Below, one piece after another: positions 5,842 to 58,820 of a DNA stretch of 64,000 bases (its first letter is position 1; each line of letters begins with the position of its first letter). The stretch spans positions 2,197-66,196 of the forward strand of contig JAQTPW010000003.1 of assembly GCA_028712565.1 (NCBI GenBank), written 5' to 3'. This stretch comes from Minisyncoccota bacterium. Lineage in GTDB: Bacteria; Patescibacteriota; Minisyncoccia; Minisyncoccales; JAQTPW01. Both the position numbers and the translations under genes were made by a program. The notes under the pieces are model-generated. The model was not told the origin of the DNA. It ran no database searches and saw only the letters and a list, made by a program, of their open reading frames with translations.

Positions 5842-7119
5842 ATGAAGCCTATTTTAAACTTTTTCAAAGCAATTTACGAAAGGGAAAAATACTTAACATT
5901 CCTTATTTTTTTTCTTTCCATTATTTGTTCCCTTCTTTTTTTAATTTTCTTTAAAAACATCGGGCCTTCTGAGCATCAAATCCCGGGAAGTGATTATTTT
6001 GCCTATTATGAACCGCTCGCAAACAGCATTCTTTCCGGAAGGGGCTTTGTCATTTTCGGGAAAGTTCCTTTGAATGTTGGGCCAATATATCCTATTTTTC
6101 TTTCCGGAATATTAATGATTTCCCGTTTTTTCTGGTTTGATAAATTTTTTTTAATAACTATATTCAATGTTATTCTTGCGGCAGCTTCTTCCTGTTTCTT
6201 GTTTTTGCTAGCCCGGGAAATATTTAATAAAAAAATAGCGCTTCTTTCCTCAATTTTATGGATGAGCTATCCTTTTAATCTCTGGTTTATTAAAAACCCC
6301 AATACTGAAGTGCCATTTATTCCCTTGCTTTATTTCGGGATTTTTCTTTATATTCTGGCGGCAAAGAAAAAAGATTTAAAAATCATGTTTTTTAGCGGCT
6401 TAATTCTTGGACTTTCTTCTCTGGCAAGGTTAATAAATTTGTTTCTTCCTCTGGCACTTTTCCTTTTTATCTTTTTTCTTCTGGAGGGCGAGTTAAAAAA
6501 GAAAAAATTGATTTTCGCGACGGTTTTTCTACTGGGAGCAGTAATTTCATTTTTGCCATGGGGACTTTATACTTTTGCAAAAACCGGAAATTTTATCCCT
6601 TTTTCACACATTGCTTCAAAGGGAATTATCCAGGGCTTCGTCACGCTTTCGCGGGAAGGCAAAGGGGTGGGAGGCAAGGCAGATGTAGTATTGGAGGAGG
6701 TAAAAGCCGTAGATGCTCTTGGCAACGAAACAGGCACATTTTATTTTTTAATTCGCACATTTTTTAAAAATCCTTTTGTATTCATAAAATTAATTGGATT
6801 GAAAATGGCAAGGTCTTGGTATGCAACTTATATGATGTGGTGGGAAAGCGCCATATTGGCAGTTCAGATGGTTTATATTTCCAGCTCTCTTTTTGGACTG
6901 ATTTATTGCCTAAAAAAATGCAAAGATAAGATAAAGCATATAACTCTTATTTTAATTATTATATTTTACTTTTGGGCAATAGACATTTTAACTGGATCTA
7001 TTTTAAGATATATGGTGCCGGCAATGGGGATTTTGATTATTTTTTCCGCAATTACAATCAGCTTATTATTAGATAAAATAAGAAAAAAATTTCAATGGAA
7101 ACAAAATTTGTCTCAATAA
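5842..7119 (+). CDS. GT-C fold membrane glycosyltransferase (ArnT/PMT-like)
   Basis: Polytopic membrane protein of about 425 aa with many TM helices. ATG at 5842 is preferred over the TTG at 5782. Confidence 0.6.
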   Translation: MKPILNFFKAIYEREKYLTFLIFFLSIICSLLFLIFFKNIGPSEHQIPGSDYFAYYEPLANSILSGRGFVIFGKVPLNVGPIYPIFLSGILMISRFFWFDKFFLITIFNVILAAASSCFLFLLAREIFNKKIALLSSILWMSYPFNLWFIKNPNTEVPFIPLLYFGIFLYILAAKKKDLKIMFFSGLILGLSSLARLINLFLPLALFLFIFFLLEGELKKKKLIFATVFLLGAVISFLPWGLYTFAKTGNFIPFSHIASKGIIQGFVTLSREGKGVGGKADVVLEEVKAVDALGNETGTFYFLIRTFFKNPFVFIKLIGLKMARSWYATYMMWWESAILAVQMVYISSSLFGLIYCLKKCKDKIKHITLILIIIFYFWAIDILTGSILRYMVPAMGILIIFSAITISLLLDKIRKKFQWKQNLSQ

Positions 7120-36953: not shown

Positions 36954-36987
36954 CACCAAAAAACAGCCCGCGGGCTGTTTTTTGGTG
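36954..36987. terminator. Perfect palindromic bidirectional terminator
   Basis: CACCAAAAAACAGCCCGCGGGCTGTTTTTTGGTG, shared by rnhA (+) and RNase P RNA (-). Confidence 0.7.
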
Positions 36988-37460
36988 TTCCAGCAAATCT
37001 GTAAGCCGAATTCTGTGTCACCCGCCGAAGCCCAATGGGCGAAGGCGGGCCAGGTGATTATCTATCTGCCGCGTAAATTACTCTACGCGATCAAGCGAAC
37101 TACTTTTCACAAAAGCTCTAGATGAAACCAGATCTTTTGTTTTGTTCTTGCGCCCAATAAGGATTTAGCCGTTTCACTTCAGCCTTTGGTTGAAGTGTCC
37201 TTCCGTAGCTCCTTGCGGAGCGAAGGAGAACCACAACCTTATAGTTGAACTCGTCCTCCTACGCTTTTTTGAGCTTCGGAGGACTCCTTCGGCCTTTCGG
37301 CCTCAGTCGTCTCTGATCGCACCTCTACCTTGCGGTTGGCGGCTGTTAGCCGCTATCTTTTTAGATCCGCCTAATCGGCGGAAATGGGTGTTCGGACTTT
37401 CCTCTCGCCCGCAATGCCATCATATGGCTTTGGGCGAGCAATCACCCGACTTGCTGGAAC
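36987..37460 (-). ncRNA. rnpB: RNase P RNA, bacterial type A
   Basis: On the - strand: GAGGAAAGTCCG (37404-37393), ACAGAATTCGGCTTA near 37015-37001, and P1 pairing of GTTCCAGCAA (5') with TTGCTGGAAC (3'). Confidence 0.85.
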
Positions 37461-47931: not shown

Positions 47932-48840
47932 ATGTTAACCCAATTTAAAAGAGCAATTCGTTTGAGCTGGACAAACTTTTTAAGGCAAGGCGCCCTTTCC
48001 TTTGCCACTTGTTTTATATTAGTAATGGCAATTGCTTTAGTTACCTCGCTTTTTATTTTAAAAGACGCAAGCCAGTTTATGATTTCTAATCTTCAGGAAA
48101 GAGTTGATATATCAGTTTATTTTAAAAATGAATCTCAAGAAGAAGATATTTTGAAAGTAAAAGATGAAGTTGCAAAAATACCGGAAGTAAAATCCATAGA
48201 ATATGTTTCAAAGGAAGAGGCGCTGGAGGCCTTTACGCAAAAGCACCAGGACGATTCTATTTTGATGGAATCTTTGACCGAATTGGGAGAAAATCCGCTA
48301 TTGGCATCTTTAAATATAAAAGCTTGGCAGCCAGACCAATACCAAAAAGTTTCAGATTACTTGAATGGCCTTGAGTCAGAAAATTTGATTGAAAAAATTG
48401 ATTATTCTCAAAGGAAATCAATAATTGAAAGAATCTTTGTTTTAACCTCCGGATTTAAAACCGCAGGTTTAATCGCTGGAATCATACTGTCTTTGGTCGC
48501 AGTTTTAATTACATTTAATACAATTAGGTTGGCGATTCTAAACCAAAAAGAAGAAATTTCCATTCAGAGATTAGTTGGCGCTTCCAACTGGTTTATCCGC
48601 GGCCCATTTTTGATCCAAGGAGCTATTGCCGGATTTTTCGCTTCTTTGATTTCTCTTTTAATTTTTGGAATATCCTGCTGGCTTTTGAGCCCCAAAATAG
48701 AAATTTTATTTTCTGACTTGAATATTTTCGGTATTTTTGTTAATAATTTCTGGATGCTGTTTTTAATCCAGCTGGCTACCGGAATTATTCTCGGAGCCAT
48801 TTCCAGCCTAATCGCCGTCAGAAAGTATTTGAAGGTGTAA
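47932..48840 (+). CDS. ftsX: Cell division permease-like protein FtsX
   Basis: N-terminal TM, periplasmic domain, three C-terminal TM helices; follows ftsE. Confidence 0.85.
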   Translation: MLTQFKRAIRLSWTNFLRQGALSFATCFILVMAIALVTSLFILKDASQFMISNLQERVDISVYFKNESQEEDILKVKDEVAKIPEVKSIEYVSKEEALEAFTQKHQDDSILMESLTELGENPLLASLNIKAWQPDQYQKVSDYLNGLESENLIEKIDYSQRKSIIERIFVLTSGFKTAGLIAGIILSLVAVLITFNTIRLAILNQKEEISIQRLVGASNWFIRGPFLIQGAIAGFFASLISLLIFGISCWLLSPKIEILFSDLNIFGIFVNNFWMLFLIQLATGIILGAISSLIAVRKYLKV

Positions 48841-48856
48841 AATTTATCTTCAAAGC

Positions 48857-48927
48857 TGCGGAGTCGTCTAATGGTAGGACTGCAGCCTCTGGAGCTGTGT
48901 ATGTTGGTTCGAATCCAACCTCCGCAG
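48857..48927 (+). tRNA. tRNA-Gln (anticodon CTG)
   Basis: Acceptor TGCGGAG/CTCCGCA, anticodon loop CTCTGGA, T-arm GTTGGTTCGAATCCAAC, discriminator G. Confidence 0.9.
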
Positions 48928-48950
48928 CTTTGAAGATAAGTAGTAATAAA

Positions 48951-49069
48951 TTTGGCGGGGTGAAGTAGGACTGTAGCCTTCCCGTCTGCGGCGGGATAAA
49001 CTGGCTTGCCCCGCTATGGCGGGGAGCCATTAATCTTGGTTCGCCTGCCCCGTAGTGAACCGAGATTTT
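48951..49069 (+). ncRNA. GC-rich structured RNA / attenuator-like leader candidate (class unknown)
   Basis: Two GCGGGG and two CCCCG segments; strong hairpin 49002-49029; terminator-like TCTTGGTTC...GAACCGAGA + TTTT at 49034-49069. Confidence 0.35.
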
Positions 49070-49129
49070 CAAGATTCTACTACTGGGAATCCAAGCCCGG
49101 CAGCCGTTCGTATTTAAACTAAAGAGCTT

Positions 49130-50248
49130 ATGAAAAAGAAAGTTTTAATAATAATTGGAATTTTGCCGGCATTTTTATTGGTGGCCTTGATCGCTTTATT
49201 TTTTATTTTGCGCGTTATAGCCCCTCCTGATGAAATGGGCTTCGGCTGGGATGGAATAAGTTCCAATGGAACTTTACCTTGGTTAAAATGGACTATTTTA
49301 GACCAAAAGCAAATCAATCAAAAGCTGCTGCCGCTTTATGCTCCCGCCCAAAATTTTGACCCACTTGCTTTGTGCGAAAAAATTACATCAAACGAGGAAA
49401 AATTTACTTGTCTGGCCATTATTAAAAATGACAAAAAGATATGCGACAACATTAATGATTCAGACGAAAAAAATTATTGCGATCTAAAACTAGATGAAGT
49501 TGCCGGACTTTCCCCTGCATTATGTGAGCAGAGAGAAGGATATTTAAAGCAGGAATGTTACGCTACTTTGGCCATTAATGAAAAAGATCCTTCTTTCTGC
49601 GGAAAGATAGATGATGGCGTTGATAAAGATTTGTGTTTTTATAATGTGGCAGTTGAGGCAGAAAATAAAACATTTTGCGAGAGAATAGCAGATGAAAATT
49701 TTTATTATATGGAGTCTTGTTTTATGGCCGTTGCTGAAAAAAACGGTGATTTCGCAACGTGTGACGAGATAGCGGACAGCCAAAAAAAGAAGAGTTGCAA
49801 ACAAGATATTAAAAATTCCATGTTGCAAAATAAAGCAATAAGCGAAAACAGTCCTTCGCTTTGTAATCAAATAAAAAGCCCAGATGGCGGAATTTCAGCC
49901 TTGCTGAATGAAAATGATGAAAAAAAATATCTGAGAGATAATTGCTATTATGAAACTGCAATAGCCAACAAAAACGCTGAAATCTGCAAAAAGATAAAAG
50001 AAGAGTGTCAACAAGCAATTTGCATAGCAGAAATAAAAAATCCCTATGCTTGTGAAAGATGTAAGGATGAAGCGTGTTGCGGAGTAATAAGTATGCGGCA
50101 ATCTTGCTACAATAAAGCCGCAATTTCTTTAGAAGATCCATCTTTTTGCGGCGATGCTACGATTACTCAGGGAAAAAATGAATGCTATTTTCTTATCGCC
50201 CTAAAATCTGCGGGAATAGACATTAAAGATTTTCTTCATGAATATTAG
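49130..50248 (+). CDS. Secreted/membrane-anchored Cys-pair repeat protein
   Basis: N-terminal TM/signal helix, then about ten repeats of about 20-24 aa of the form C-x6-9-[DN]-x2-3-C-x2-I. Confidence 0.7.
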   Translation: MKKKVLIIIGILPAFLLVALIALFFILRVIAPPDEMGFGWDGISSNGTLPWLKWTILDQKQINQKLLPLYAPAQNFDPLALCEKITSNEEKFTCLAIIKNDKKICDNINDSDEKNYCDLKLDEVAGLSPALCEQREGYLKQECYATLAINEKDPSFCGKIDDGVDKDLCFYNVAVEAENKTFCERIADENFYYMESCFMAVAEKNGDFATCDEIADSQKKKSCKQDIKNSMLQNKAISENSPSLCNQIKSPDGGISALLNENDEKKYLRDNCYYETAIANKNAEICKKIKEECQQAICIAEIKNPYACERCKDEACCGVISMRQSCYNKAAISLEDPSFCGDATITQGKNECYFLIALKSAGIDIKDFLHEY

Positions 50249-50347
50249 CTTTATAGTTTTAAAATTAGTTTAAAATAGAAATGTAAAATATTTTTTGTAT
50301 TTGTATAATAAAAGATGAAAATATAAAAAAGCAATAAATAAAGCGCT

Positions 50348-51121
50348 ATGGGCAAAGAAAATAAATCAATACACGAGTTTGACTTAAACTTAATTTGTGA
50401 ATTACATTTAGGACTGGAACGGCAGGGGCCTGGCAGTCCTGAAATGACTATTAAGGCATTAAGTTTTCTGGATAATCTTAATAAAAATTTACGGGTAGCG
50501 GATTTGGGCTGTGGAACCGGCGGGCAAACAATGGTTCTTGCACAAAATATTACTGGGAATATCACTGGCGTAGATTTTTTCCCCGGTTTTATAAATATTT
50601 TTAACGACAATGCCAAAAAATTGAATCTCCAAGAAAGAGTAAATAGTATTGTCGGCTCAATGGAAAACCTTTCTTTCCAAAAAGAAGAATTTGACCTTAT
50701 ATGGTCTGAAGGGGCTATTGCCAGTATTGGTTTTGAAAAAGGCCTGAACTATTGGAAGGACTTCCTGAAAACAGGCGGCTATATTGCCTTAACATACGAA
50801 TCATGGTTTACCGATGAGCGCCCCGCCGAAATTGAAAAGTGGTGGGTTGATAATGTTCCTGAAATAAGCACGATAGGGCATAATATCTCAATAATGCAAA
50901 AAGCGGGTTATCGTCTTGTTGCCGCGTTTACATTGCCCGAAAAATGCTGGACAGATAATTATTTTATTCCGCGGCAAGCCGCAGGAAAAGCGCTTTTAGA
51001 AAAATATGCCGGAAATAAAACCGTAGAGGATTTTATTGCAAATATGGAATATGAGGCGGAATTGTATTCAAAATACAAACAGTATTATGGATATGTTTTC
51101 TATATCGGCAAGAAAATATAA
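50348..51121 (+). CDS. Class I SAM-dependent methyltransferase
   Basis: Motif [13 protein letters not shown]; 257 aa. Confidence 0.8.
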
Positions 51122-51204
51122 AGGCATCATTTTCCCATTTATAATGAAATTAAACCGAAGATATTATTAAAACATGCGAAGTCAGGTGACTGAGACGCAT
51201 GAAA

Positions 51205-51235
51205 GGAAAACCGCCCGAAACAGGCGGTTTTCCTT
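51205..51235. terminator. GC hairpin terminator at the left edge of the GC-rich cassette
   Basis: GGAAAACCGCC-CGAAACA-GGCGGTTTTCC followed by TTTTC. Confidence 0.5.
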
Positions 51236-51262
51236 TTCTACTCCAAGCTGAGTCGCAAACCC

Positions 51263-51291
51263 TTGACAAAGTTTATTTATAGTAATGTAAT
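51263..51291 (+). promoter_or_regulatory. Candidate promoter of the GC-rich ORF
   Basis: TTGACA-17 nt-TGTAAT. Confidence 0.45.
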
Positions 51292-51362
51292 GAAGATGTA
51301 AAAAGAGAATATCTTTTTGCTGCCCTAAACGGCATACGCACATTGAAAAGGAGATTTGTTTG

Positions 51363-51866
51363 ATGGAAAAGATTCTGAGTGTTCGTCGCATTGGCTTGGT
51401 TGCACGCATCGCCGACATGCTGATGGTGCCGATCATGTATATTTCTTCGGGTACGTTTCGCGAGAAACCCCAGCATACGCACGCATGGAACGTGCAGAAT
51501 TTGCCAGCAGACGGAGACAAGCGTCTGGTCAACCAGGCAATGGCTCACTGCAAGGGTATCGCCGAACAGATAGCTCGGCGTCACTGGTTGGACTTTCAGT
51601 TCCACATACTGATTATTGGAGGATGGCGTAACTACGTCGTCCTTCAGCCCGAATATGAGGAAGTGTGGCATGTTGGTTGGAGGGCGTCTGACGCAGGTGC
51701 CCAGATTTCCATATTGCCCCTCGTTGGCCCGGTACGCATGCTGATTGGTTCCGAAGACGTATCGTTCTTCGGCGTCACCGACGACGGCGTCCAAATTCCG
51801 ATCCGTGAGATCGGCAAGGGTCGCATCGGAGATTGCGGAGAGTTTTCCAAAATTCAGCTTTATTGA
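51363..51866 (+). CDS. Hypothetical protein in a GC-rich, foreign-looking cassette
   Basis: SD AAGGAG 9 nt before the ATG, own promoter and terminator. A mirror ORF on the - strand (51273-51872) shares codon register, so strand choice is not certain. Confidence 0.5.
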   Translation: MEKILSVRRIGLVARIADMLMVPIMYISSGTFREKPQHTHAWNVQNLPADGDKRLVNQAMAHCKGIAEQIARRHWLDFQFHILIIGGWRNYVVLQPEYEEVWHVGWRASDAGAQISILPLVGPVRMLIGSEDVSFFGVTDDGVQIPIREIGKGRIGDCGEFSKIQLY

Positions 51867-51908
51867 TATCATCCCAAATGGGATGGACGTTCAACAAGGC
51901 GACAGGTT

Positions 51909-51938
51909 ACCGCCTACCTGAGTTAAAGGCGGTTTTTT
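51909..51938 (+). terminator. Terminator of the GC-rich ORF
   Basis: ACCGCCT-ACCTGAGTTA-AAGGCGGT followed by TTTTTT. Confidence 0.55.
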
Positions 51939-52329
51939 CTTTACTTCGACTCGTTTCATTCGTTCAGCGCAGGCTCTTATTCTACCCCGGGATTTTGCGG
52001 GCGAAAGTTTTTGTTTATCCTGAGCGCAGTCGAACAGATTGAAATTTATCGGAAAAAGCATAAAGTTAATATAAGAAATACGTAAAAAATAACAAGGGAG
52101 TAGGTAAATTTTATGAAAAAACAATCTCAAAATTTAATTGTTGGAAATCCGGACAATAAAACAAGCTTTTGAGCTTTTGAATATTCACTATTAATATAAA
52201 TAATAAAGGTATTTTGAAAACTAATTGTTTTGTTGGTTGTAGAGATGGGCGATATAAAAAACCGAATATTTTAAAATTGAAAAAAGTTAAAAATAGTATT
52301 TTAAAAAAAGTAAAATAAAAAATTAAATT

Positions 52330-55300
52330 ATGAATATGGGTGGTCTTTTTGAAAATTATATCCAATCTATCTCTTCTAAATTTTCTCATGCAGAGACGAG
52401 TGAAATGGGATACCGTACGGACTTTGAGAATTTAATTAAAGAGATTTTCGAGGCGATTAAAGTCTATCGGATAGACCATGACGCAAAAGCTGAAAAGGGC
52501 AATAAGCCAGATTTTGTTGTGCTCAAATATGATGTGCCAATTTTGTATATTGAAACAAAAGATATCGGTGTTTATTTGGATAAAGTTGAAAAATCAGAGC
52601 AAATGGCAAGGTATTATGGTTATACAAATTTAGTTCTTACCAATTATGTCGAATTTCGTTTTTATAGAAATGGAATCCGTTATGAAGAGCCGATAAAAAT
52701 TGCCAATTACGATATAAAAAATAGAATAATTTCTCCAATTCCCGAAAATTACGAGCATATCGCCAAATCATTAGTTGAATTTACTCAAACTTACAAGGAG
52801 CCGATACGTTCAGGCGAGCACCTCGCAAAGATTATGGGTGGGAAAGCGCAAAGAATTAGGGATAATGTGCGTCAATTTTTTGTTTCCGAATCAGATAAAA
52901 GTATTGAACTCTTCCATGTTTATGAAACTGTAAAAAAACTCCTTGTTCATGATCTTACGCCAGACGCTTTTTCTGATATGTATGCGCAAACTCTAGTCTA
53001 TGGCCTTTTTGTCGCTCGTTATTATGACGAATCACCAGATACCTTTACGCGACAAGAGGCCCGCGATCTTGTTCCCGATTCCAATCCTTTTCTTGGACAT
53101 TTTTTTGATCACATCGTTGGACGGAATTTTGATAAGCGACTCGAATATATCGTAAATGAATTGTGCGAAGTTTTTGCCCATTCTAATGTAAAAGAATTAA
53201 TGGGCCAATATTTCAAGACGGATTTATTCGATAAGACCCATGAAGAACCCGATCCGGTTATTCATTTTTATGAAGATTTTTTAAAGGAATACGATCCCGA
53301 ATTAAGGAAAAAAATGGGGGCGTATTATACGCCGTTGCCCGTTGTCAGGTTTATTGTACGAGCTGTAGATAAAATTCTCGAAATGGATTTTGGATTGGTT
53401 AGGGGGCTTGCCGATAATGTTAAAAATACTGCCGGAATTCACCGCGTGCAAATTCTTGACCCAGCCGTCGGTACGGGTACTTTTATTAGTGCGATAATTC
53501 GGGCTATTTATGAACGTATTTTGAAAGCCAAGCAGGAAGGAAGTTGGCCAGCTTACGTGCATCACGATCTTTTACCTCGTATCCATGGATTTGAATTGAT
53601 GATGGCTCCATACACAATAGCTCATTTAAAATTGAGCATGGCGTTTGAAAAAACTGGATTTTGGAAATTTCATCGTCGGCTTGGTATCTATCTTACGAAT
53701 TCCCTCGAAGAGAGTCCTATCCAAAAGGATTTATTTACCGGCTTTGGTTTTGCCGAAAGTATTGCCGAAGAGTCAAAAGAAGCATCAGTTATAAAAAATA
53801 AAACCCCGATTATGGTGGTTGTTGGTAATCCGCCTTATAGCGTAAGCTCCTCAAACAAAGGCGAGTGGATACAAAATCTCATTAAGGATTATAAAAAGGG
53901 TCTCGGTGAACGGAAGATTAATCTTGATGACGATTATATTAAATTCATCCGTTTTGCCGAACACTTTATAGAGAAAAATAAAAGCGGCATTGTCGCGATG
54001 ATTACCAATAACTCATTTATAGACGGTATCACTCATCGTCAAATGAGAAAGCATCTACTTGAAACATTTAATGATATTTATATTCTTGACCTTCACGGAA
54101 ACTCCAAGAAAAAAGAAAAGGCGCCGGACGGGAGGAAAGATGAAAACGTCTTCGATATCCAGCAGGGTGTTTCGATTAATGTTTTTGTACGCGAGGAAGG
54201 TGAAAAAAAGGGTCTCGGTACTGTCCGCCACGCCGAACTTTATGGAAAAAGAGAAAATAAATTTGAAACATTAAGCAAAAACGATATAACAACTATTAAA
54301 TGGAAAAAACTTAATTCACCCGAACCATATTATTTTTTCGTACCAAAGGATTTCGGAGTGGAAGCGGAGTATAGTAAAGGGTTTAAAGTCGATGAATTAT
54401 TTAACATCTTTAGCGTCGGTATTGGTACAAAAGTTGATTCTATATCCGTTGATTTTGATAAAGATAAATTGATAAGAAGAGTAATTGATATTTTGAATAA
54501 CAAGTATAAAAAAGAGTCATTAATTTTAAAGTTTGAATTAGAAAATAATACGACTTGGGAGTACGAGAGAGCCCTTAACGCAACGTTTGAAGAAAATAAA
54601 ATAGTTGAATATGATTATCGTCCCTTCGATAAAAGATACACTTTTTATGATCACGATTTTCTGTCTAGAGGTCGGCGGAATGTAATGGATAATTTTTTCA
54701 ATAAAAATAATTATGGTCTTGAACTGGGTCGAACGTCATTCGTTGCTTTTATATCTAAGGACTTAAGTGACGAGCATTTCGGAGGTCCTAAATCTTATAA
54801 ATTTCCTCTCTATATTTGGGCTGCCGGCAAAAATCGAACACCAAATTTTAAAAAATCAATTATTGAAGAAATAGAAAAAATTATAGGCAAGGCATCCCCT
54901 GAAGATATTTTCGATTACATTTATGCCGTTCTTCACTCGCCAAGCTATCGCGAAAAATACAAGGAATTTTTGAAGATTGATTTTCCTCGAATACCTTATC
55001 CGAAAAATAAAATAAGCTTTAAGAAGCTTGTAGCGTTTGGCACGGAATTACGTTCACTGCACCTTCTTGAATCTCCAAAAATTAACAAATTTATAACAAC
55101 ATATCCTATTACTGGATCAGATACCACCGATAAAATAACTTATAAAGATAATAAAGTATTTATCAATAATGATCAGTATTTTGGCAATGTATCTGAATTA
55201 GCTTGGAATTTCTATGTCGGCGGTTATCAACCAGCACAAAAATGGCTCAAAGACCGCAAGGGCCGTACCCTCACAAATGCCGATATTGAACACTACCAAA

Positions 55301-55377
55301 AAATAATTGTTGCACTCACCGAAACAGATAAAATCATGAAAGAAATTGATAAAATTTATGTTAAAAAAGCAAGATAA
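52330..55377 (+). CDS. Single-polypeptide type IIG-like restriction-modification enzyme (PD-ExK nuclease + gamma N6-adenine methyltransferase + C-terminal specificity domain)
   Basis: N-terminal KPDFVV...LYIETKD; motif I ILDPAVGTGTF; motif IV VVGNPPYS; C-terminal FLKIDFPRIPYP...LRSLHLLES, as in type ISP/IIG specificity domains. No helicase/ATPase motifs. Confidence 0.8.
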   Translation: MNMGGLFENYIQSISSKFSHAETSEMGYRTDFENLIKEIFEAIKVYRIDHDAKAEKGNKPDFVVLKYDVPILYIETKDIGVYLDKVEKSEQMARYYGYTNLVLTNYVEFRFYRNGIRYEEPIKIANYDIKNRIISPIPENYEHIAKSLVEFTQTYKEPIRSGEHLAKIMGGKAQRIRDNVRQFFVSESDKSIELFHVYETVKKLLVHDLTPDAFSDMYAQTLVYGLFVARYYDESPDTFTRQEARDLVPDSNPFLGHFFDHIVGRNFDKRLEYIVNELCEVFAHSNVKELMGQYFKTDLFDKTHEEPDPVIHFYEDFLKEYDPELRKKMGAYYTPLPVVRFIVRAVDKILEMDFGLVRGLADNVKNTAGIHRVQILDPAVGTGTFISAIIRAIYERILKAKQEGSWPAYVHHDLLPRIHGFELMMAPYTIAHLKLSMAFEKTGFWKFHRRLGIYLTNSLEESPIQKDLFTGFGFAESIAEESKEASVIKNKTPIMVVVGNPPYSVSSSNKGEWIQNLIKDYKKGLGERKINLDDDYIKFIRFAEHFIEKNKSGIVAMITNNSFIDGITHRQMRKHLLETFNDIYILDLHGNSKKKEKAPDGRKDENVFDIQQGVSINVFVREEGEKKGLGTVRHAELYGKRENKFETLSKNDITTIKWKKLNSPEPYYFFVPKDFGVEAEYSKGFKVDELFNIFSVGIGTKVDSISVDFDKDKLIRRVIDILNNKYKKESLILKFELENNTTWEYERALNATFEENKIVEYDYRPFDKRYTFYDHDFLSRGRRNVMDNFFNKNNYGLELGRTSFVAFISKDLSDEHFGGPKSYKFPLYIWAAGKNRTPNFKKSIIEEIEKIIGKASPEDIFDYIYAVLHSPSYREKYKEFLKIDFPRIPYPKNKISFKKLVAFGTELRSLHLLESPKINKFITTYPITGSDTTDKITYKDNKVFINNDQYFGNVSELAWNFYVGGYQPAQKWLKDRKGRTLTNADIEHYQKIIVALTETDKIMKEIDKIYVKKAR

Positions 55378-56110
55378 AACATATATTTTTATTGACGAGT
55401 CTGGTAAACCCGAGGTGTATTCAGTAAGAGGCGTCAATTTAGTTGAACAAGGATTCGCTACTAAATTTTTTGTATTAGCTGCGATCCGAAGTGACGATCA
55501 ATTAGCCATACAACAGAAAGTTACCGATTTTAAATCAGAATTATTGCACGATAAAAATTTAACAAAAATATTTTCTTCCGCTTACACTCTTGACGCTTTT
55601 CACGCACAAACCGATTATCCCGAAGTTAAAGAAAAATTCTATCAATTTATAAACAGTTTAGATATCAAAATAGATGTAATTGTTGTAGAAAAGTTAAAGT
55701 GCTATCAAGCGCTTAAACAAAATCCAGGCAAAATGTATGGGATAATGGCTGGACAGCTTTTAAAGAATATTTGTCATAAGTCAAAAAGAACAGAAATAGT
55801 TTTTTCTCGCAAAGACAGTAAGCTTAAATTTCGGCAAGAGCTAGAAATCGAAGTGGAGCGGATTAGATTAGAATGGTTACAACAACATAAAAATCTTGAC
55901 GGGAAATTTACTCTCTCATATCAGCATAATCCTCACCATACTCACGGCGGATTACAGATTGCCGACTATGTTGCTTATGCTATTTTTCAAGCGTACGAAC
56001 ATGGAAAAAATCAGTGGTATGAAGTTATCAAAAATAAAATCGGAGAAATCCACGATATATGCAACAAAAAATACTTCACTAGGAGCAATCCGCTAAAACT
56101 ATCCACTTAA
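55358..56110 (+). CDS. DUF3800-like protein
   Basis: N-terminal YIFIDESG and C-terminal GGLQIADYVAYAIF motifs; start overlaps the R-M gene stop by 20 nt. Confidence 0.65.
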   Translation: MLKKQDKTYIFIDESGKPEVYSVRGVNLVEQGFATKFFVLAAIRSDDQLAIQQKVTDFKSELLHDKNLTKIFSSAYTLDAFHAQTDYPEVKEKFYQFINSLDIKIDVIVVEKLKCYQALKQNPGKMYGIMAGQLLKNICHKSKRTEIVFSRKDSKLKFRQELEIEVERIRLEWLQQHKNLDGKFTLSYQHNPHHTHGGLQIADYVAYAIFQAYEHGKNQWYEVIKNKIGEIHDICNKKYFTRSNPLKLST

Positions 56111-56439
56111 AGGAAGTGCGAACTTCGCACGTTTCATTAAGCGAATTGCTCTCAATGAAGTATTTAAGGGTACAATTGCATTGTACCACAAAAGCGGGCG
56201 TCAAGGCAAAAGTTATCCACAGATAGAAAAAAGCGGGCTTTGAGCCCGGAGTGCGCTTTCGTAGATTAATCCTATAATGTTTTCTGCATTACTATAATTC
56301 CTACTGGAATTGTAGTAAAAACTAAAACAAATTTTGAAACAGTTTCAATAGATGATTTATTGGAGAATAAATATATGTACGCAGATTTACTTTTGAATCC
56401 GAACGCCGTATGATAAGAAAAAAATAATCAAAATTTAGT

Positions 56440-56643
56440 ATGAAAAGACAAATTACAAAAAAAGCTTTTGAAAAAGAGATTAAGATGTGTGAGAAATTAG
56501 CAAAAGAAAAGAAAGGGAAATGCGGTTGGGGAAAATGTAAAGATTGTGGAGTGATTCCACTTTTGTATAAGTTGCACAAAGGGAAATTATTGGAGAAATC
56601 GGCGGAAATTAAAAAAGCTAAAGAAAAAATAATCAAAATATAG
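56440..56643 (+). CDS. Small Lys-rich protein with a CxWGxCxxCG cysteine cluster
   Basis: 67 aa, MCEKLAKEKKGKCGWGKCKDCGVIPLLYKL; 24 nt upstream of the CYTH gene. Confidence 0.45.
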   Translation: MKRQITKKAFEKEIKMCEKLAKEKKGKCGWGKCKDCGVIPLLYKLHKGKLLEKSAEIKKAKEKIIKI

Positions 56644-56667
56644 CCGAAGTTAAATAAAAATATTTTT

Positions 56668-57246
56668 ATGGCGTCGTTGTTTGAGTGTGAGGTTAGATAC
56701 AAAATAGAAAATATAAAAGAATTTGAAGGGAAAATAAAAAAAATGGGAGCTAAGCTTTTATATCCCTATGAATTTACTGATTATTACTACGGGCCAAAAG
56801 ATAAAAACTGGGATTTAGTTAGGGAAAATTTAAGGATAAGGGAATGGAAAGAACCTAAAAATCCAACGACGATTTATTTTGTAAAAAACGAAGTTGTATC
56901 GATTGGTAATGTTCGGTTTAAAAGAGCGCTTTATCCTCAAGGAAAAGTTCCTCTTTTCAGCGGCAAATTGAAAGTATGTAAATCTTTGATTGATGACCTA
57001 GGATTTAAAAAATTATTTACTGTTAAGAAAGAAAAAGCGACTTTTTGGGAACTACCGCAAGGGTTTAAAACAGTTCTTGAATATATAAGGGGAATTGGTT
57101 GGTGGGGCGAACTTGAATTTAAAGGAGAAAACCCGGCTTTTGCCAAAAAAGAAATAGAGAGAGCATTAAAAATTCTCGGGATTAAAAAAGAAAATGTGAG
57201 TTATAAGACCGTTTCCGCGATTTTCTCTGAAAAAATTAAAAGATAA
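56668..57246 (+). CDS. CYTH-domain protein (class IV adenylate cyclase / triphosphate tunnel metalloenzyme)
   Basis: N-terminal ExExK-type motif (FECEVRYK), alternating charged beta-strand pattern, GELEFKG near the C-terminus; 192 aa. Confidence 0.7.
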   Translation: MASLFECEVRYKIENIKEFEGKIKKMGAKLLYPYEFTDYYYGPKDKNWDLVRENLRIREWKEPKNPTTIYFVKNEVVSIGNVRFKRALYPQGKVPLFSGKLKVCKSLIDDLGFKKLFTVKKEKATFWELPQGFKTVLEYIRGIGWWGELEFKGENPAFAKKEIERALKILGIKKENVSYKTVSAIFSEKIKR

Positions 57247-57249
57247 CTA

Positions 57250-57300
57250 GTCCTTCGATAAAGCTCAGGACAGTACTGGAGCTTGATTTTTGGGTTTTTT
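57250..57300 (+). terminator. Overlapping hairpins + T-run after the CYTH gene
   Basis: GTCCT...AGGAC and AAGCTC...GAGCTT followed by GATTTTTGGGTTTTTTT. Confidence 0.5.
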
Positions 57301-57335
57301 TGTGTTAAAGTAAGAGGGTTTGAACGTACATATAT

Positions 57336-58820
57336 ATGAACAATGGAGAAACCATATTGAGATTTAATAAAGTGTCTTTTGCGTACGGACAGGAAAAACC
57401 CATATTAGATGAGGCGGATTTTTCTGTGAGAAAGGGATCAAAAATTACTTTAATGGGCCAGAACGGCGCCGGAAAAAGCACGATTTTTAATCTTATCACG
57501 GGAGATTTAAGTCCCGATTCGGGAGCGGTCAATCTCGGCGTCGGAGTTACGGTTGCGGAAGCCAAGCAGGTAATTTCCAGAGATCTGCTTCCTTTAACCG
57601 TACGCGAATTTTTTCAAAAATGCTTCAGCAAACCCACCTTCGCCAAGGCTTCGGCGGGTCAAGCGAAGATATACGACATTGACCCGAGGATAGATGAAGT
57701 TTTGGAAATAGTAAATCTTGAGGCCGACCATGACAAAATTATAAAATCTTTTTCGGGCGGCCAGCAGGCGAGAATTCTTTTGGCTTCGGCGATTATCCAA
57801 AATCCGGATCTTTTGCTTTTGGACGAGCCGACAAATAATCTGGACAAGGAAGGCATTTTGCATTTAACAAAGTTTCTCATTGATTATAAAAAAACCTGCA
57901 TTGTCATTTCTCACGACGCCGATTTTTTAAACGCATTCACCCACGGCGTCCTTTATTTGGATGTTTTTACCCGCAAGATTGAGCAGTATGTCGGAAATTA
58001 TTTTGATTTATTGGTTGAAATTTCCGCAAGGATAGAAAGGGAAAACAGGAAAAATGCGCAATTGGCAAAACAGATTCAGGAGAAAAAAGACAAGGCAAAT
58101 TATTTTGCCCACAAGGGAGGCCAGCTTAGATTTTTGGCAAAAAAAATGCGGGAAAAAGCAGAAGAAATGGAAGAGGAAAAAGTTGATGTGAGAAAAGAGG
58201 ATAAAACCATCAGGCAATTTTTTATTCCCACGCAGGAAAACATCGGAGGGGAAATTTTAAATATAACTTCTTTTTCAGTGATGAAAAACCGAAAGTCGGT
58301 CAAACGAGAAGCGAATATTTCTTTGAGAAAAAGGGAGAGATTGCTTTTGGCAGGACCAAATGGCATCGGCAAGACGACATTGCTGGAAGCTTTGGTTTCC
58401 GGGAAAGCAAAGGGCGCTAAAATTGCGCCGAACGTGCAAGTGGGGTATTACCGCCAGGATTTTTCCACTCTTAATTTTGACGATACGGTTTACCAGTCAT
58501 TAAGCGCGGTTGCGGCAGATATGCCCGAAGACAAGCTTCGTTCTCTTGCGGCAGGATTTTTAATAACGGGGGACTTAATGCATTCAAAAATTGGCAGTTT
58601 ATCAGAGGGGCAGAAAGGCCTTGTATCTTTTGCAAGGCTTGTGCTTCAAAAACCTGGGCTTTTGATTTTGGACGAACCGACAAACCATATAAACTTCCGG
58701 CACTTGCCGATTATAGCCTCCGCTCTTAATAAATACGAAGGAGCTATGATTTTAGTCAGCCATATCCCGGAGTTCGTAAAGCAGATAAGAATAGATGAAA
58801 TTATCGACTTGGATAAATGA
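57336..58820 (+). CDS. ABC-F family ATPase (two fused ABC domains, no TM domain)
   Basis: Two Walker A motifs (GQNGAGKST, GPNGIGKTT), two signature motifs (FSGGQQAR, LSEGQKG), charged linker. Confidence 0.9.
   Translation: MNNGETILRFNKVSFAYGQEKPILDEADFSVRKGSKITLMGQNGAGKSTIFNLITGDLSPDSGAVNLGVGVTVAEAKQVISRDLLPLTVREFFQKCFSKPTFAKASAGQAKIYDIDPRIDEVLEIVNLEADHDKIIKSFSGGQQARILLASAIIQNPDLLLLDEPTNNLDKEGILHLTKFLIDYKKTCIVISHDADFLNAFTHGVLYLDVFTRKIEQYVGNYFDLLVEISARIERENRKNAQLAKQIQEKKDKANYFAHKGGQLRFLAKKMREKAEEMEEEKVDVRKEDKTIRQFFIPTQENIGGEILNITSFSVMKNRKSVKREANISLRKRERLLLAGPNGIGKTTLLEALVSGKAKGAKIAPNVQVGYYRQDFSTLNFDDTVYQSLSAVAADMPEDKLRSLAAGFLITGDLMHSKIGSLSEGQKGLVSFARLVLQKPGLLILDEPTNHINFRHLPIIASALNKYEGAMILVSHIPEFVKQIRIDEIIDLDK

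Follow-up and report, generated by a model that had tools for sequence, protein, structure and literature searches.

The window analysed here is a stretch of 64 kb (positions 2,197 to 66,196 of contig JAQTPW010000003.1) from an AT-rich contig of a Minisyncoccota bacterium, within the Patescibacteria or Candidate Phyla Radiation (CPR). It holds a short block with a high content of guanine plus cytosine (GC), centred on an open reading frame (ORF) of 167 codons on the plus strand. We consider it probable that this ORF is a gene of an unannotated CPR protein family lying in a transcription unit of its own, that its GC excess is a property of one clade of the family, and that the unit is a relocated cassette now ameliorating towards the composition of its host. 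A first-pass annotation, made from the letters alone, had described the block as a horizontally acquired cassette of the moron type, perhaps with a defence function or with genes on both strands.

The plus-strand ORF is a genuine gene and its protein is under strong purifying selection. It has 13 full-length homologues of 161-169 aa that are 46-85% identical. For the eight loci with DNA, differences per codon position were 0.36/0.28/0.61, with variation peaking at position 3, and the proportion of non-synonymous differences was 0.08-0.41 against 0.46-0.90 (near saturation) for the synonymous ones, with omega values of 0.10-0.26. Gaps in the family alignment fall between codons.

The product belongs to a large family of ~160-170 aa, spread across the Patescibacteria/CPR and lacking any curated annotation. 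A profile made from the homologues was compared with 1.84e9 representative sequences (clusters at 50% identity), giving 412 clusters at E<=1e-3 and 361 at E<=1e-10, nearly all of 140-240 aa and matching from end to end. Aligned over its whole length, the window protein matches 95 members with lengths of 157-189 aa, the first 14 of them at E 2e-109 to 5e-38. Record titles place family members among the Pace-, Nomura-, Azam-, Kaiser-, Moran- and Andersenbacteria, the Paceibacteria, the Minisyncoccia and the Saccharimonadia. An identical protein has already been deposited (PHF44_02085, from a metagenome-assembled genome (MAG) of Candidatus Pacebacteria), and all source names read "hypothetical protein"; a contig that is 100% identical (L057) is present in SRR22315508. 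The deposited protein and others such as H6780_00225 (Ca. Nomurabacteria) and A3C91_04950 (Ca. Azambacteria) match the hidden Markov model over its full length, with E values down to 1e-84; they are as long as the window copy and have in common with the window copy the motifs PQxTHxWN, FHxPxxGGW(R/K)xYxVL, WHVGW, GPVRxLxG, FFG and GxGRIGD. The clade of the window copy differs from other members in lying 14-18 GC points above its hosts and in having a stand-alone promoter and terminator, whereas many other members are operonic and of host-like composition. No match to the family was found in Pfam (including searches with all 96 members of the alignment), NCBIfam, PHROGs or PADLOC, and sequence and profile searches of the PDB gave nothing at E<0.05. 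The first-pass annotation recognised no family in the product; no curated library names one, but the protein does belong to this large, phylum-wide family. Two observations on copy number were made in other genomes: a Ca. Moraniibacteriota MAG carries tandem paralogues (L019, 5989-6486 and the next ORF; 165 and ~164 aa, 109 nt apart; loci of relatives are designated by L and a number), and locus L024 has a split copy that is probably a pseudogene.

The residues M25, Q37, H40, W42, G87, G105, Q144, E34, P36, H81, W88, W102 and R125 are invariant or nearly so in the family, and all of them are present in the window protein. The near-invariant polar and aromatic set (D18, E34, Q37, H40, W42, N43, H81, W88, W102, W106, R125 and Q144) suggests a putative ligand or active site. 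Two AlphaFold2 models were made, one from 14 sequences with a mean predicted local distance difference test score (pLDDT) of 77 and one from 96 sequences with a pLDDT of 91.2 and a predicted template modelling (TM) score of 0.86; in the predicted fold, an N-terminal helix (residues 12-29) precedes a beta-sandwich. Foldseek comparisons of both models with the PDB and BFVD returned no hit at E<=1e-3, the best E values being 0.15 (PDB) and 0.03 (BFVD) with TM<0.4. The top non-significant hits were cupins, CBM35, the lectin BclA, the nucleoplasmin core and the Anabaena sensory rhodopsin transducer, which resemble residues ~90-154 in general all-beta sandwich topology. These beta-sandwich or jelly-roll hits had E >= 0.15, TM 0.13-0.39 and 6-15% identity, no sequence-profile match accompanied them, and the conserved N-terminal helix and PQxTHxWN segment of the family have no counterpart in them.

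The gene is contained in one monocistronic plus-strand transcription unit made up of a promoter, a structured 5' untranslated region (UTR), a Shine-Dalgarno (SD) motif, the coding sequence (CDS), a 3' hairpin and a terminator that ends at 51943 (Table 1). The -35 and -10 elements are conserved in L001, L004, L007, L009, L012, L013, L055 and L056. The -10 element is TATAAT in all relatives examined, among them L001, L007, L009, L012, L013, L055 and L056; the window has TGTAAT, with G at the critical -11 position, and since our promoter scan demands A at position 2 of the -10 element it did not list the window promoter. The start codon is ATG in the window copy and GTG in L007, L055 and L056. 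Both hairpins of the 5' UTR are kept in the alignment with these three loci, the 3' UTR hairpin persists in L007 as CGUCUC/GGGACG, a compensatory change having replaced A-U by G-C, and the terminator, which is the right end of the conserved unit, is near-identical in L007, L055 and L056. The upstream inverted repeat folds far better than its shuffles (minimum free energy (MFE) -23.2, z -6.35, 0/200 as good) and looks like a bidirectional intrinsic terminator closing the upstream methyltransferase gene. It stands outside the conserved unit, homology with L007, L055 and L056 beginning at 51256-51257. A strict terminator scan listed neither this repeat nor the terminator at the right end. The promoter, SD motif, start codon and flanking hairpin terminators proposed in the first-pass annotation are thus all present; the degenerate TTCGA...GCTCAGG hairpins that it placed at 51947-52039 could not be substantiated, as 51940-52045 folds like its shuffles (z -0.33 on the plus strand, +0.18 on the minus strand) and the homology of the relatives ends at 51943.

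Table 1 Features of the GC-rich block and its surroundings (positions in the 64-kb window)
Feature	Position	Strand	Description
tRNA-Gln(CTG)	48857-48928		Followed by the variable island
SAM (S-adenosylmethionine)-dependent methyltransferase	50348-51121	+	Directly upstream gene
Upstream inverted repeat, perfect 14 bp	51202-51236	.	AAAGGAAAACCGCC-N7-GGCGGTTTTCCTTT, 100% complementary
Conserved unit, promoter to terminator	51257-51943	+	Only stretch of the window aligning with the loci of the closest relatives
Sigma-70-type promoter	51263-51291	+	TTGACA 51263-68, 17-nt spacer, TGTAAT 51286-91
Mirror ORF, 199 aa	51273-51872	−	Open, codon-aligned with the plus-strand ORF; judged not to be a gene
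5' UTR	51298-51362	+	Start at ~51298 inferred; fold MFE -14.0, z -2.02
5' UTR hairpin 1	51298-51320	+	GUAAAAAGA/UCUUUUUGC
5' UTR hairpin 2	51321-51334	+	UGCC/GGCA
Shine-Dalgarno motif AAGGAG	51348-53	+	9 nt before ATG 51363
CDS, 167 aa	51363-51866	+	Homologues, dN/dS, codon-position pattern
3' UTR hairpin	51870-51885	+	CAUCCC-AAAU-GGGAUG; fold, alignment
Intrinsic terminator	51909-51943	+	Stem ACCGCCU 51909-15/AGGCGGU 51927-33, 11-nt loop, then UUUUUCUUU
AT-rich spacer preceding the restriction-modification gene	51944-52329	.	No homology in relatives

At the 3' end of the unit a putative pseudoknot-like topology was seen in both subclades, in which a short stem of 4-5 bp would be interleaved with the terminator stem. 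In the window (51904-51933) AGGU 51904-07 could pair with ACCU 51916-19 inside the terminator loop; L001 (~6524-6560) and L012 have GGUCG...CGACC, and the 3' UTRs of L009 and L011 may also have the topology. The terminator stem of L009 carries a compensatory AGAGU/ACUCU change.

Scanning the window at 300 and 500 nt bore out the sharp rise in GC over ~0.7 kb described earlier. At 300 nt the content was 0.52-0.55 at ~51350-51950 against 0.30-0.39 on both sides, climbing from 0.35 before the block and dropping to 0.23-0.32 after it, and the five richest 500-nt intervals of the 64 kb all fell within the block (0.518-0.534; window mean 0.355, sd 0.042). GC at third codon positions (GC3) is 0.61 in the gene against 0.317±0.039 (maximum 0.45) in 52 other long ORFs of the window. 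The gene exceeds its host at all three codon positions, and the codon-usage check advised in the first-pass annotation revealed a shift in all degenerate codon classes.

This excess characterises a single clade of the family, whose members live in AT-rich hosts. A family-wide excess was considered and rejected, as gene GC tracks host GC across 40 loci from GTDB genomes (r = 0.73, mean excess +0.018). When GC3 was placed on a neighbour-joining tree, the strongly deviant members formed a single clade (L009, L001, L012, (window, L007)), to which L055 and L056 also belong. Within it GC3 is 0.53-0.68 where the hosts have 0.20-0.43 (excess +0.18 to +0.39), the most extreme contrast being a GC3 of 0.58 in a host at 0.20, and the GC island of each locus falls on the gene. 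At two-fold sites G/(A+G) reaches 0.52-0.71 against 0.10-0.36, C/(C+T) is also higher, and CGN replaces AGR; the clade proteins have more G, R, W and V and fewer K and N. Classical translational selection for high GC3 is unlikely, given that the enrichment extends to G-ending two-fold codons and to CGN codons for arginine. The idea that the composition marks a recent acquisition by this particular genome was not supported, the excess being found at the level of the clade. Nothing relevant on CPR genes with outlying GC3 or expression turned up in the literature searched.

The two parts of the clade behave differently. L001, L009 and L012 are syntenic, with the gene placed between HSP20-PrsW-class I aminoacyl-tRNA synthetase (aaRS) and TsaD; identity is 46-83% among the flanking proteins and 57-64% among the gene products, the pairs being ranked alike, and flank GC3 is 0.19-0.37 where that of the gene is 0.53-0.68. 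In the window subclade, synonymous changes polarised by parsimony run mostly from GC to AT, with GC->AT:AT->GC counts of 12:4 in the window, 12:1 in L007 and 9:6 in L055. Their sum, 33:11, is far from the stationary 1:1 and close to the ~3:1 expected under the host mutation bias.

The closest relatives of the window protein (73-85% amino acid identity) have the ~690-nt unit in other contexts. By blastn the window matches L007 with 82.8% over 698 nt (51257-51943), L055 with 79.3% (51256-51942) and L056 with 73.2% (51257-51937), and these three loci have no further homology to the 64-kb window outside the unit. In the window the unit is placed between the methyltransferase and a restriction-modification (R-M) gene; in L056 it is followed by dnaE; in L007 and L055 it lies between a small ORF and an acyltransferase, with a helix-turn-helix protein and a large serine recombinase further on (4 kb from the unit in L007).

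The surroundings in the window look like a mosaic of separately acquired single-gene pieces, from ~49 to 56 kb. The methyltransferase appears to be a widely exchanged single gene: copies 80-93% identical are found in Spirochaetota, Synergistota (Acetomicrobium), Firmicutes (Oscillospiraceae), Bacteroidota, Fibromonadaceae and other Paceibacteria (7398 hits at E<=1e-30), and in two other Paceibacteria contexts its DNA homology (83-85%) is limited to the CDS and the unit is absent. Presence or absence of the unit beside the methyltransferase in relatives was therefore uninformative as a test, the methyltransferase itself being promiscuous. Downstream, as the first-pass annotation had it, the block is directly followed by a Type IIG/ISP R-M gene and DUF3800 (PADLOC REase_MTase_IIG and DUF3800_VII). 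The neighbours examined with Pfam in the window were prfB, ftsEX, the methyltransferase, R-M, DUF3800, CYTH and an ABC ATPase. Searches for att-type direct repeats of the tRNA and for attC-like sites found none above chance, 48700-57400 showed no repeated junction motif, and the segment following the unit, with its shuffle-like and unconserved folding, does not resemble the attC-like 3' palindrome of an integron gene cassette. Two further features of the island were recorded. The tRNA-Gln lies within a perfect 20-nt inverted repeat (48844-48863, 48920-48939) that extends its acceptor stem by ~13 bp on both sides and may form a processing or insulating helix. The first island gene after it (49130-50248, plus strand, 372 aa) has an N-terminal hydrophobic segment, no Pfam hit and repeats of the type C-x-D/N...K-x-x-C, in which numerous Cys recur at regular spacing.

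Flanking ORFs were clustered from ~47 family loci to look at the wider neighbourhood. In 12 of them a GH1 glycosidase adjoins the family gene downstream on the same strand, with a gap of -25 to +17 nt in six, and is followed by an EamA membrane protein, a TIM-barrel glycosidase and then HtrA or a bactofilin-like protein; upstream of the gene these loci have a YHYH protein, a PolB-type 3'-5' exonuclease, an ATP-grasp protein and a DsbA-like protein. Other family loci adjoin prfB-ftsE-ftsX or CTP synthase, and aaRS, TsaD, MreC and dnaE are among the further neighbours. The arrangement prfB-ftsE-ftsX-tRNA-Gln is also present in the window, 2.5 kb upstream of the unit. Because a large branch of the family has the gene at the head of a closely packed GH1-EamA-glycosidase operon, a carbohydrate-related function is proposed: with low confidence, the product may act in the cytoplasm or at the membrane periphery as a small ligand-binding protein or enzyme whose conserved site is rich in Trp, His, Gln, Glu and Arg.

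As the sequence of events we propose that the GC-rich clade would descend from a GC-richer Patescibacterial background and that the unit would have been relocated or exchanged as a cassette running from promoter to terminator. The window copy, in a variable island after tRNA-Gln, would be losing GC under the AT pressure of its host. In the syntenic trio L001/L009/L012 some force must retain the GC, because a neutral relic should decay once synonymous sites are saturated; this would most plausibly be selection for a GC-rich, structured and stable mRNA, which may hold the excess longer. The model of Lawrence and Ochman describes the amelioration of horizontally acquired genes. Our case resembles it in the GC shift at all codon positions, in the recent GC->AT changes at ~3:1 and, for the window, in the variable island next to a tRNA. 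It differs in the survival of the excess in a syntenic trio with saturated dS, and in a likely source within the same phylum. The earlier claim of a horizontally acquired cassette thus stands in part: the autonomous unit, its foreign composition, the varied contexts, the GC->AT bias and the variable island agree with it, and the clade-level excess and partial synteny do not. Conserved vertical orthologues at the same locus in relatives had been named as an outcome that would speak against acquisition, and a part of the clade does have such syntenic orthologues, so on this point the claim is half contradicted.

Several points weigh against this explanation. Neutral amelioration misfits the trio, whose GC3 remains raised by +0.18 to +0.39 at saturated dS, so that the two strands of compositional evidence conflict: amelioration fits the window subclade and selection on structure fits L009 and L001. 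No donor lineage emerged, and the DNA analysed for the window and for L007 shares no orthologous housekeeping genes with which to gauge the divergence of the cassette against that of the genomes. The sharp homology boundaries could be produced by functional constraint alone, without mobility. TGTAAT in place of the TATAAT of the relatives may make the window copy weakly transcribed, and together with the change of start codon it may have weakened expression in the window lineage. The proposed function is based solely on gene neighbourhood in other lineages, and GH1, EamA and the glycosidase are absent from the 64-kb window. A few record titles also name non-CPR taxa. Among these, a distant member (L050 6010-6528, 29% identity) is on a 487-kb contig titled "uncultured Acidobacteriaceae" and three short family-bearing contigs are titled Bdellovibrionales or Novosphingobium; such contigs could be mis-binned or mislabelled, or the family could reach beyond the Patescibacteria. 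Finally, CDS folding was compared with shuffles of synonymous codons, 22 gene segments serving as controls (z -0.70±1.2), and the window (z -1.6) and L007 (z -1.3) fell within the control range. The signal for a consensus structure from RNAalifold is modest (z -2.1; 2/100 codon-aware column shuffles as good), and the 23 double-change pairs, against 14.5±2.3 in shuffles, were counted on a structure derived from the same alignment.

The alternative that survives best, which we take seriously although we hold it to be rather unlikely, is that there is no transfer relic at all and that the GC excess is maintained by selection on the transcript as a dual-purpose, structured, stable or highly expressed mRNA. 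The persistence of the excess in the co-diverged trio points in this direction, as do the shift of all degenerate classes including G-ending two-fold codons, the near-consensus promoter and strong SD motif found in all members of the clade, and a consensus structure that beats 98 of 100 shuffles. All six genes tested had negative folding z scores, reaching -7.1 in L009, -3.4 in L001 and -2.1 in L012. It is opposed by the control-like folding of the window and L007, by changes in the window subclade that run towards AT near the neutral ratio, by the lack of sequence conservation at synonymous sites and by the host-like GC of most of the family. A second GC-rich outlier gene was observed in L001 (1411-2394, plus strand; 327 aa, no Pfam hit, GC 0.58 in a host at 0.38), directly downstream of type IV secretion system (T4SS)-pilin genes, with a CDS fold z of -4.2 against synonymous shuffles; these genomes may harbour a recurring class of GC-rich structured mRNAs.

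Going further, the protein might have an undescribed fold and an activity in core Patescibacteria biology, for instance as a glycan-binding or glycan-modifying partner of the GH1-EamA-glycosidase set, one clade having become an exchangeable cassette with a selected GC-rich structured mRNA. We find this combination improbable. If true, the compositional anomaly would reflect a function at the RNA level, beyond the history of transfer.

That the gene is a recently acquired moron-type or defence-linked gene (anti-restriction, immunity or abortive infection) working with the Type IIG R-M/DUF3800 pair, as first proposed, is very unlikely. Phage morons are autonomous units with a promoter, ORF and terminator of their own and a deviant GC content, found inserted among the genes of a phage. 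The window unit is like them in its own sigma-70 promoter and terminator, the terminator upstream, the deviant composition and a position that varies among close relatives; its place behind a tRNA gene, in an island where R-M and DUF3800 follow immediately, and the recombinase near the L007 copy could be read in the same sense. Unlike morons, it lies outside any prophage, and the family spans the phylum, is chromosomal and shows partial synteny. No member turned up in IMG/VR (pattern scan) or in INPHARED phages and PLSDB plasmids (blastn, tblastn), no PHROG matches the family, and PADLOC gave 0 matches for seven diverse members. Compared with known anti-phage and anti-restriction proteins, the family shows no profile match and no recurrent association with defence: defence or R-M neighbours occur at the window locus only (1/~47 loci), the others being beside aaRS, TsaD, MreC, dnaE, ftsEX, CTP synthase or the GH1 operon. 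We conclude that the gene has no link to phage or to known defence systems, and neither the moron nor the anti-restriction, immunity or abortive-infection proposal is upheld.

An antisense overlapping pair, with the 199-aa minus-strand ORF as a real or second gene, is extremely unlikely. Both frames are indeed open over their full length and in register, as had been noticed, and this is unusual for the genome: a codon-aligned antisense frame is open in 0/75 comparable 167-codon segments of its other genes. Host codon usage predicts 6.7 antisense stops, and the gene has 0/167 TTA, CTA or TCA codons, the absence of which from the sense strand is the reason why the minus frame is open. Among eight distinct close loci this frame is open only in the window and L001, the other six having 1-7 stops, and it carries 1-15 stops in 39/40 loci of relatives from GTDB genomes. 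The substitution pattern suits coding on the plus strand only, its most variable codon position being position 1 of the minus frame, and Pfam gave for the minus ORF only sub-threshold noise (zf-RING_15 and PNK3P). The mirror ORF arises mechanically from the choice of GC-rich codons, as a by-product, and the suggested antisense gene pair is abandoned; for annotation, there is a single real gene, on the plus strand, and the mirror ORF should not be called.

A structured non-coding RNA with an incidental ORF is just as implausible: the other GC peaks of the stretch are tRNAs and RNase P RNA and some relatives fold unusually well, but conservation at the protein level is overwhelming, and Rfam had nothing at the gathering threshold; relaxing it to E<=10 still left the body of the block unmatched and brought up only terminator look-alikes (ohsC, IS128 and rli52, 51158-51316) on the upstream hairpin. 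The RNase P RNA (bacterial class A, 36986-37457, minus strand) is the second GC-richest spot of the window (GC ~0.51) and is flanked by two ORFs, one resembling RNase HI and the other aspartate carbamoyltransferase. Over the full model (1-367) it scores 96.1 bits with E 5e-30; the Rfam gathering score is 100, so that the scan at this threshold missed it.

What is new here is modest: an unnamed phylum-wide family without a structural neighbour, together with a compositional anomaly specific to one clade; the anatomy of the gene is ordinary and its sequence had already been deposited. With at least 412 clusters, no name in curated databases, a confident predicted fold without structural neighbour and a recurrent connection with a GH1 glycosidase operon, the family is a reasonable target for structural and functional work on CPR. 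The GC excess of its clade offers a compact natural test of post-transfer amelioration versus selection on the composition or structure of the mRNA, and it cautions that a deviant GC content does not by itself date a transfer into the genome at hand.

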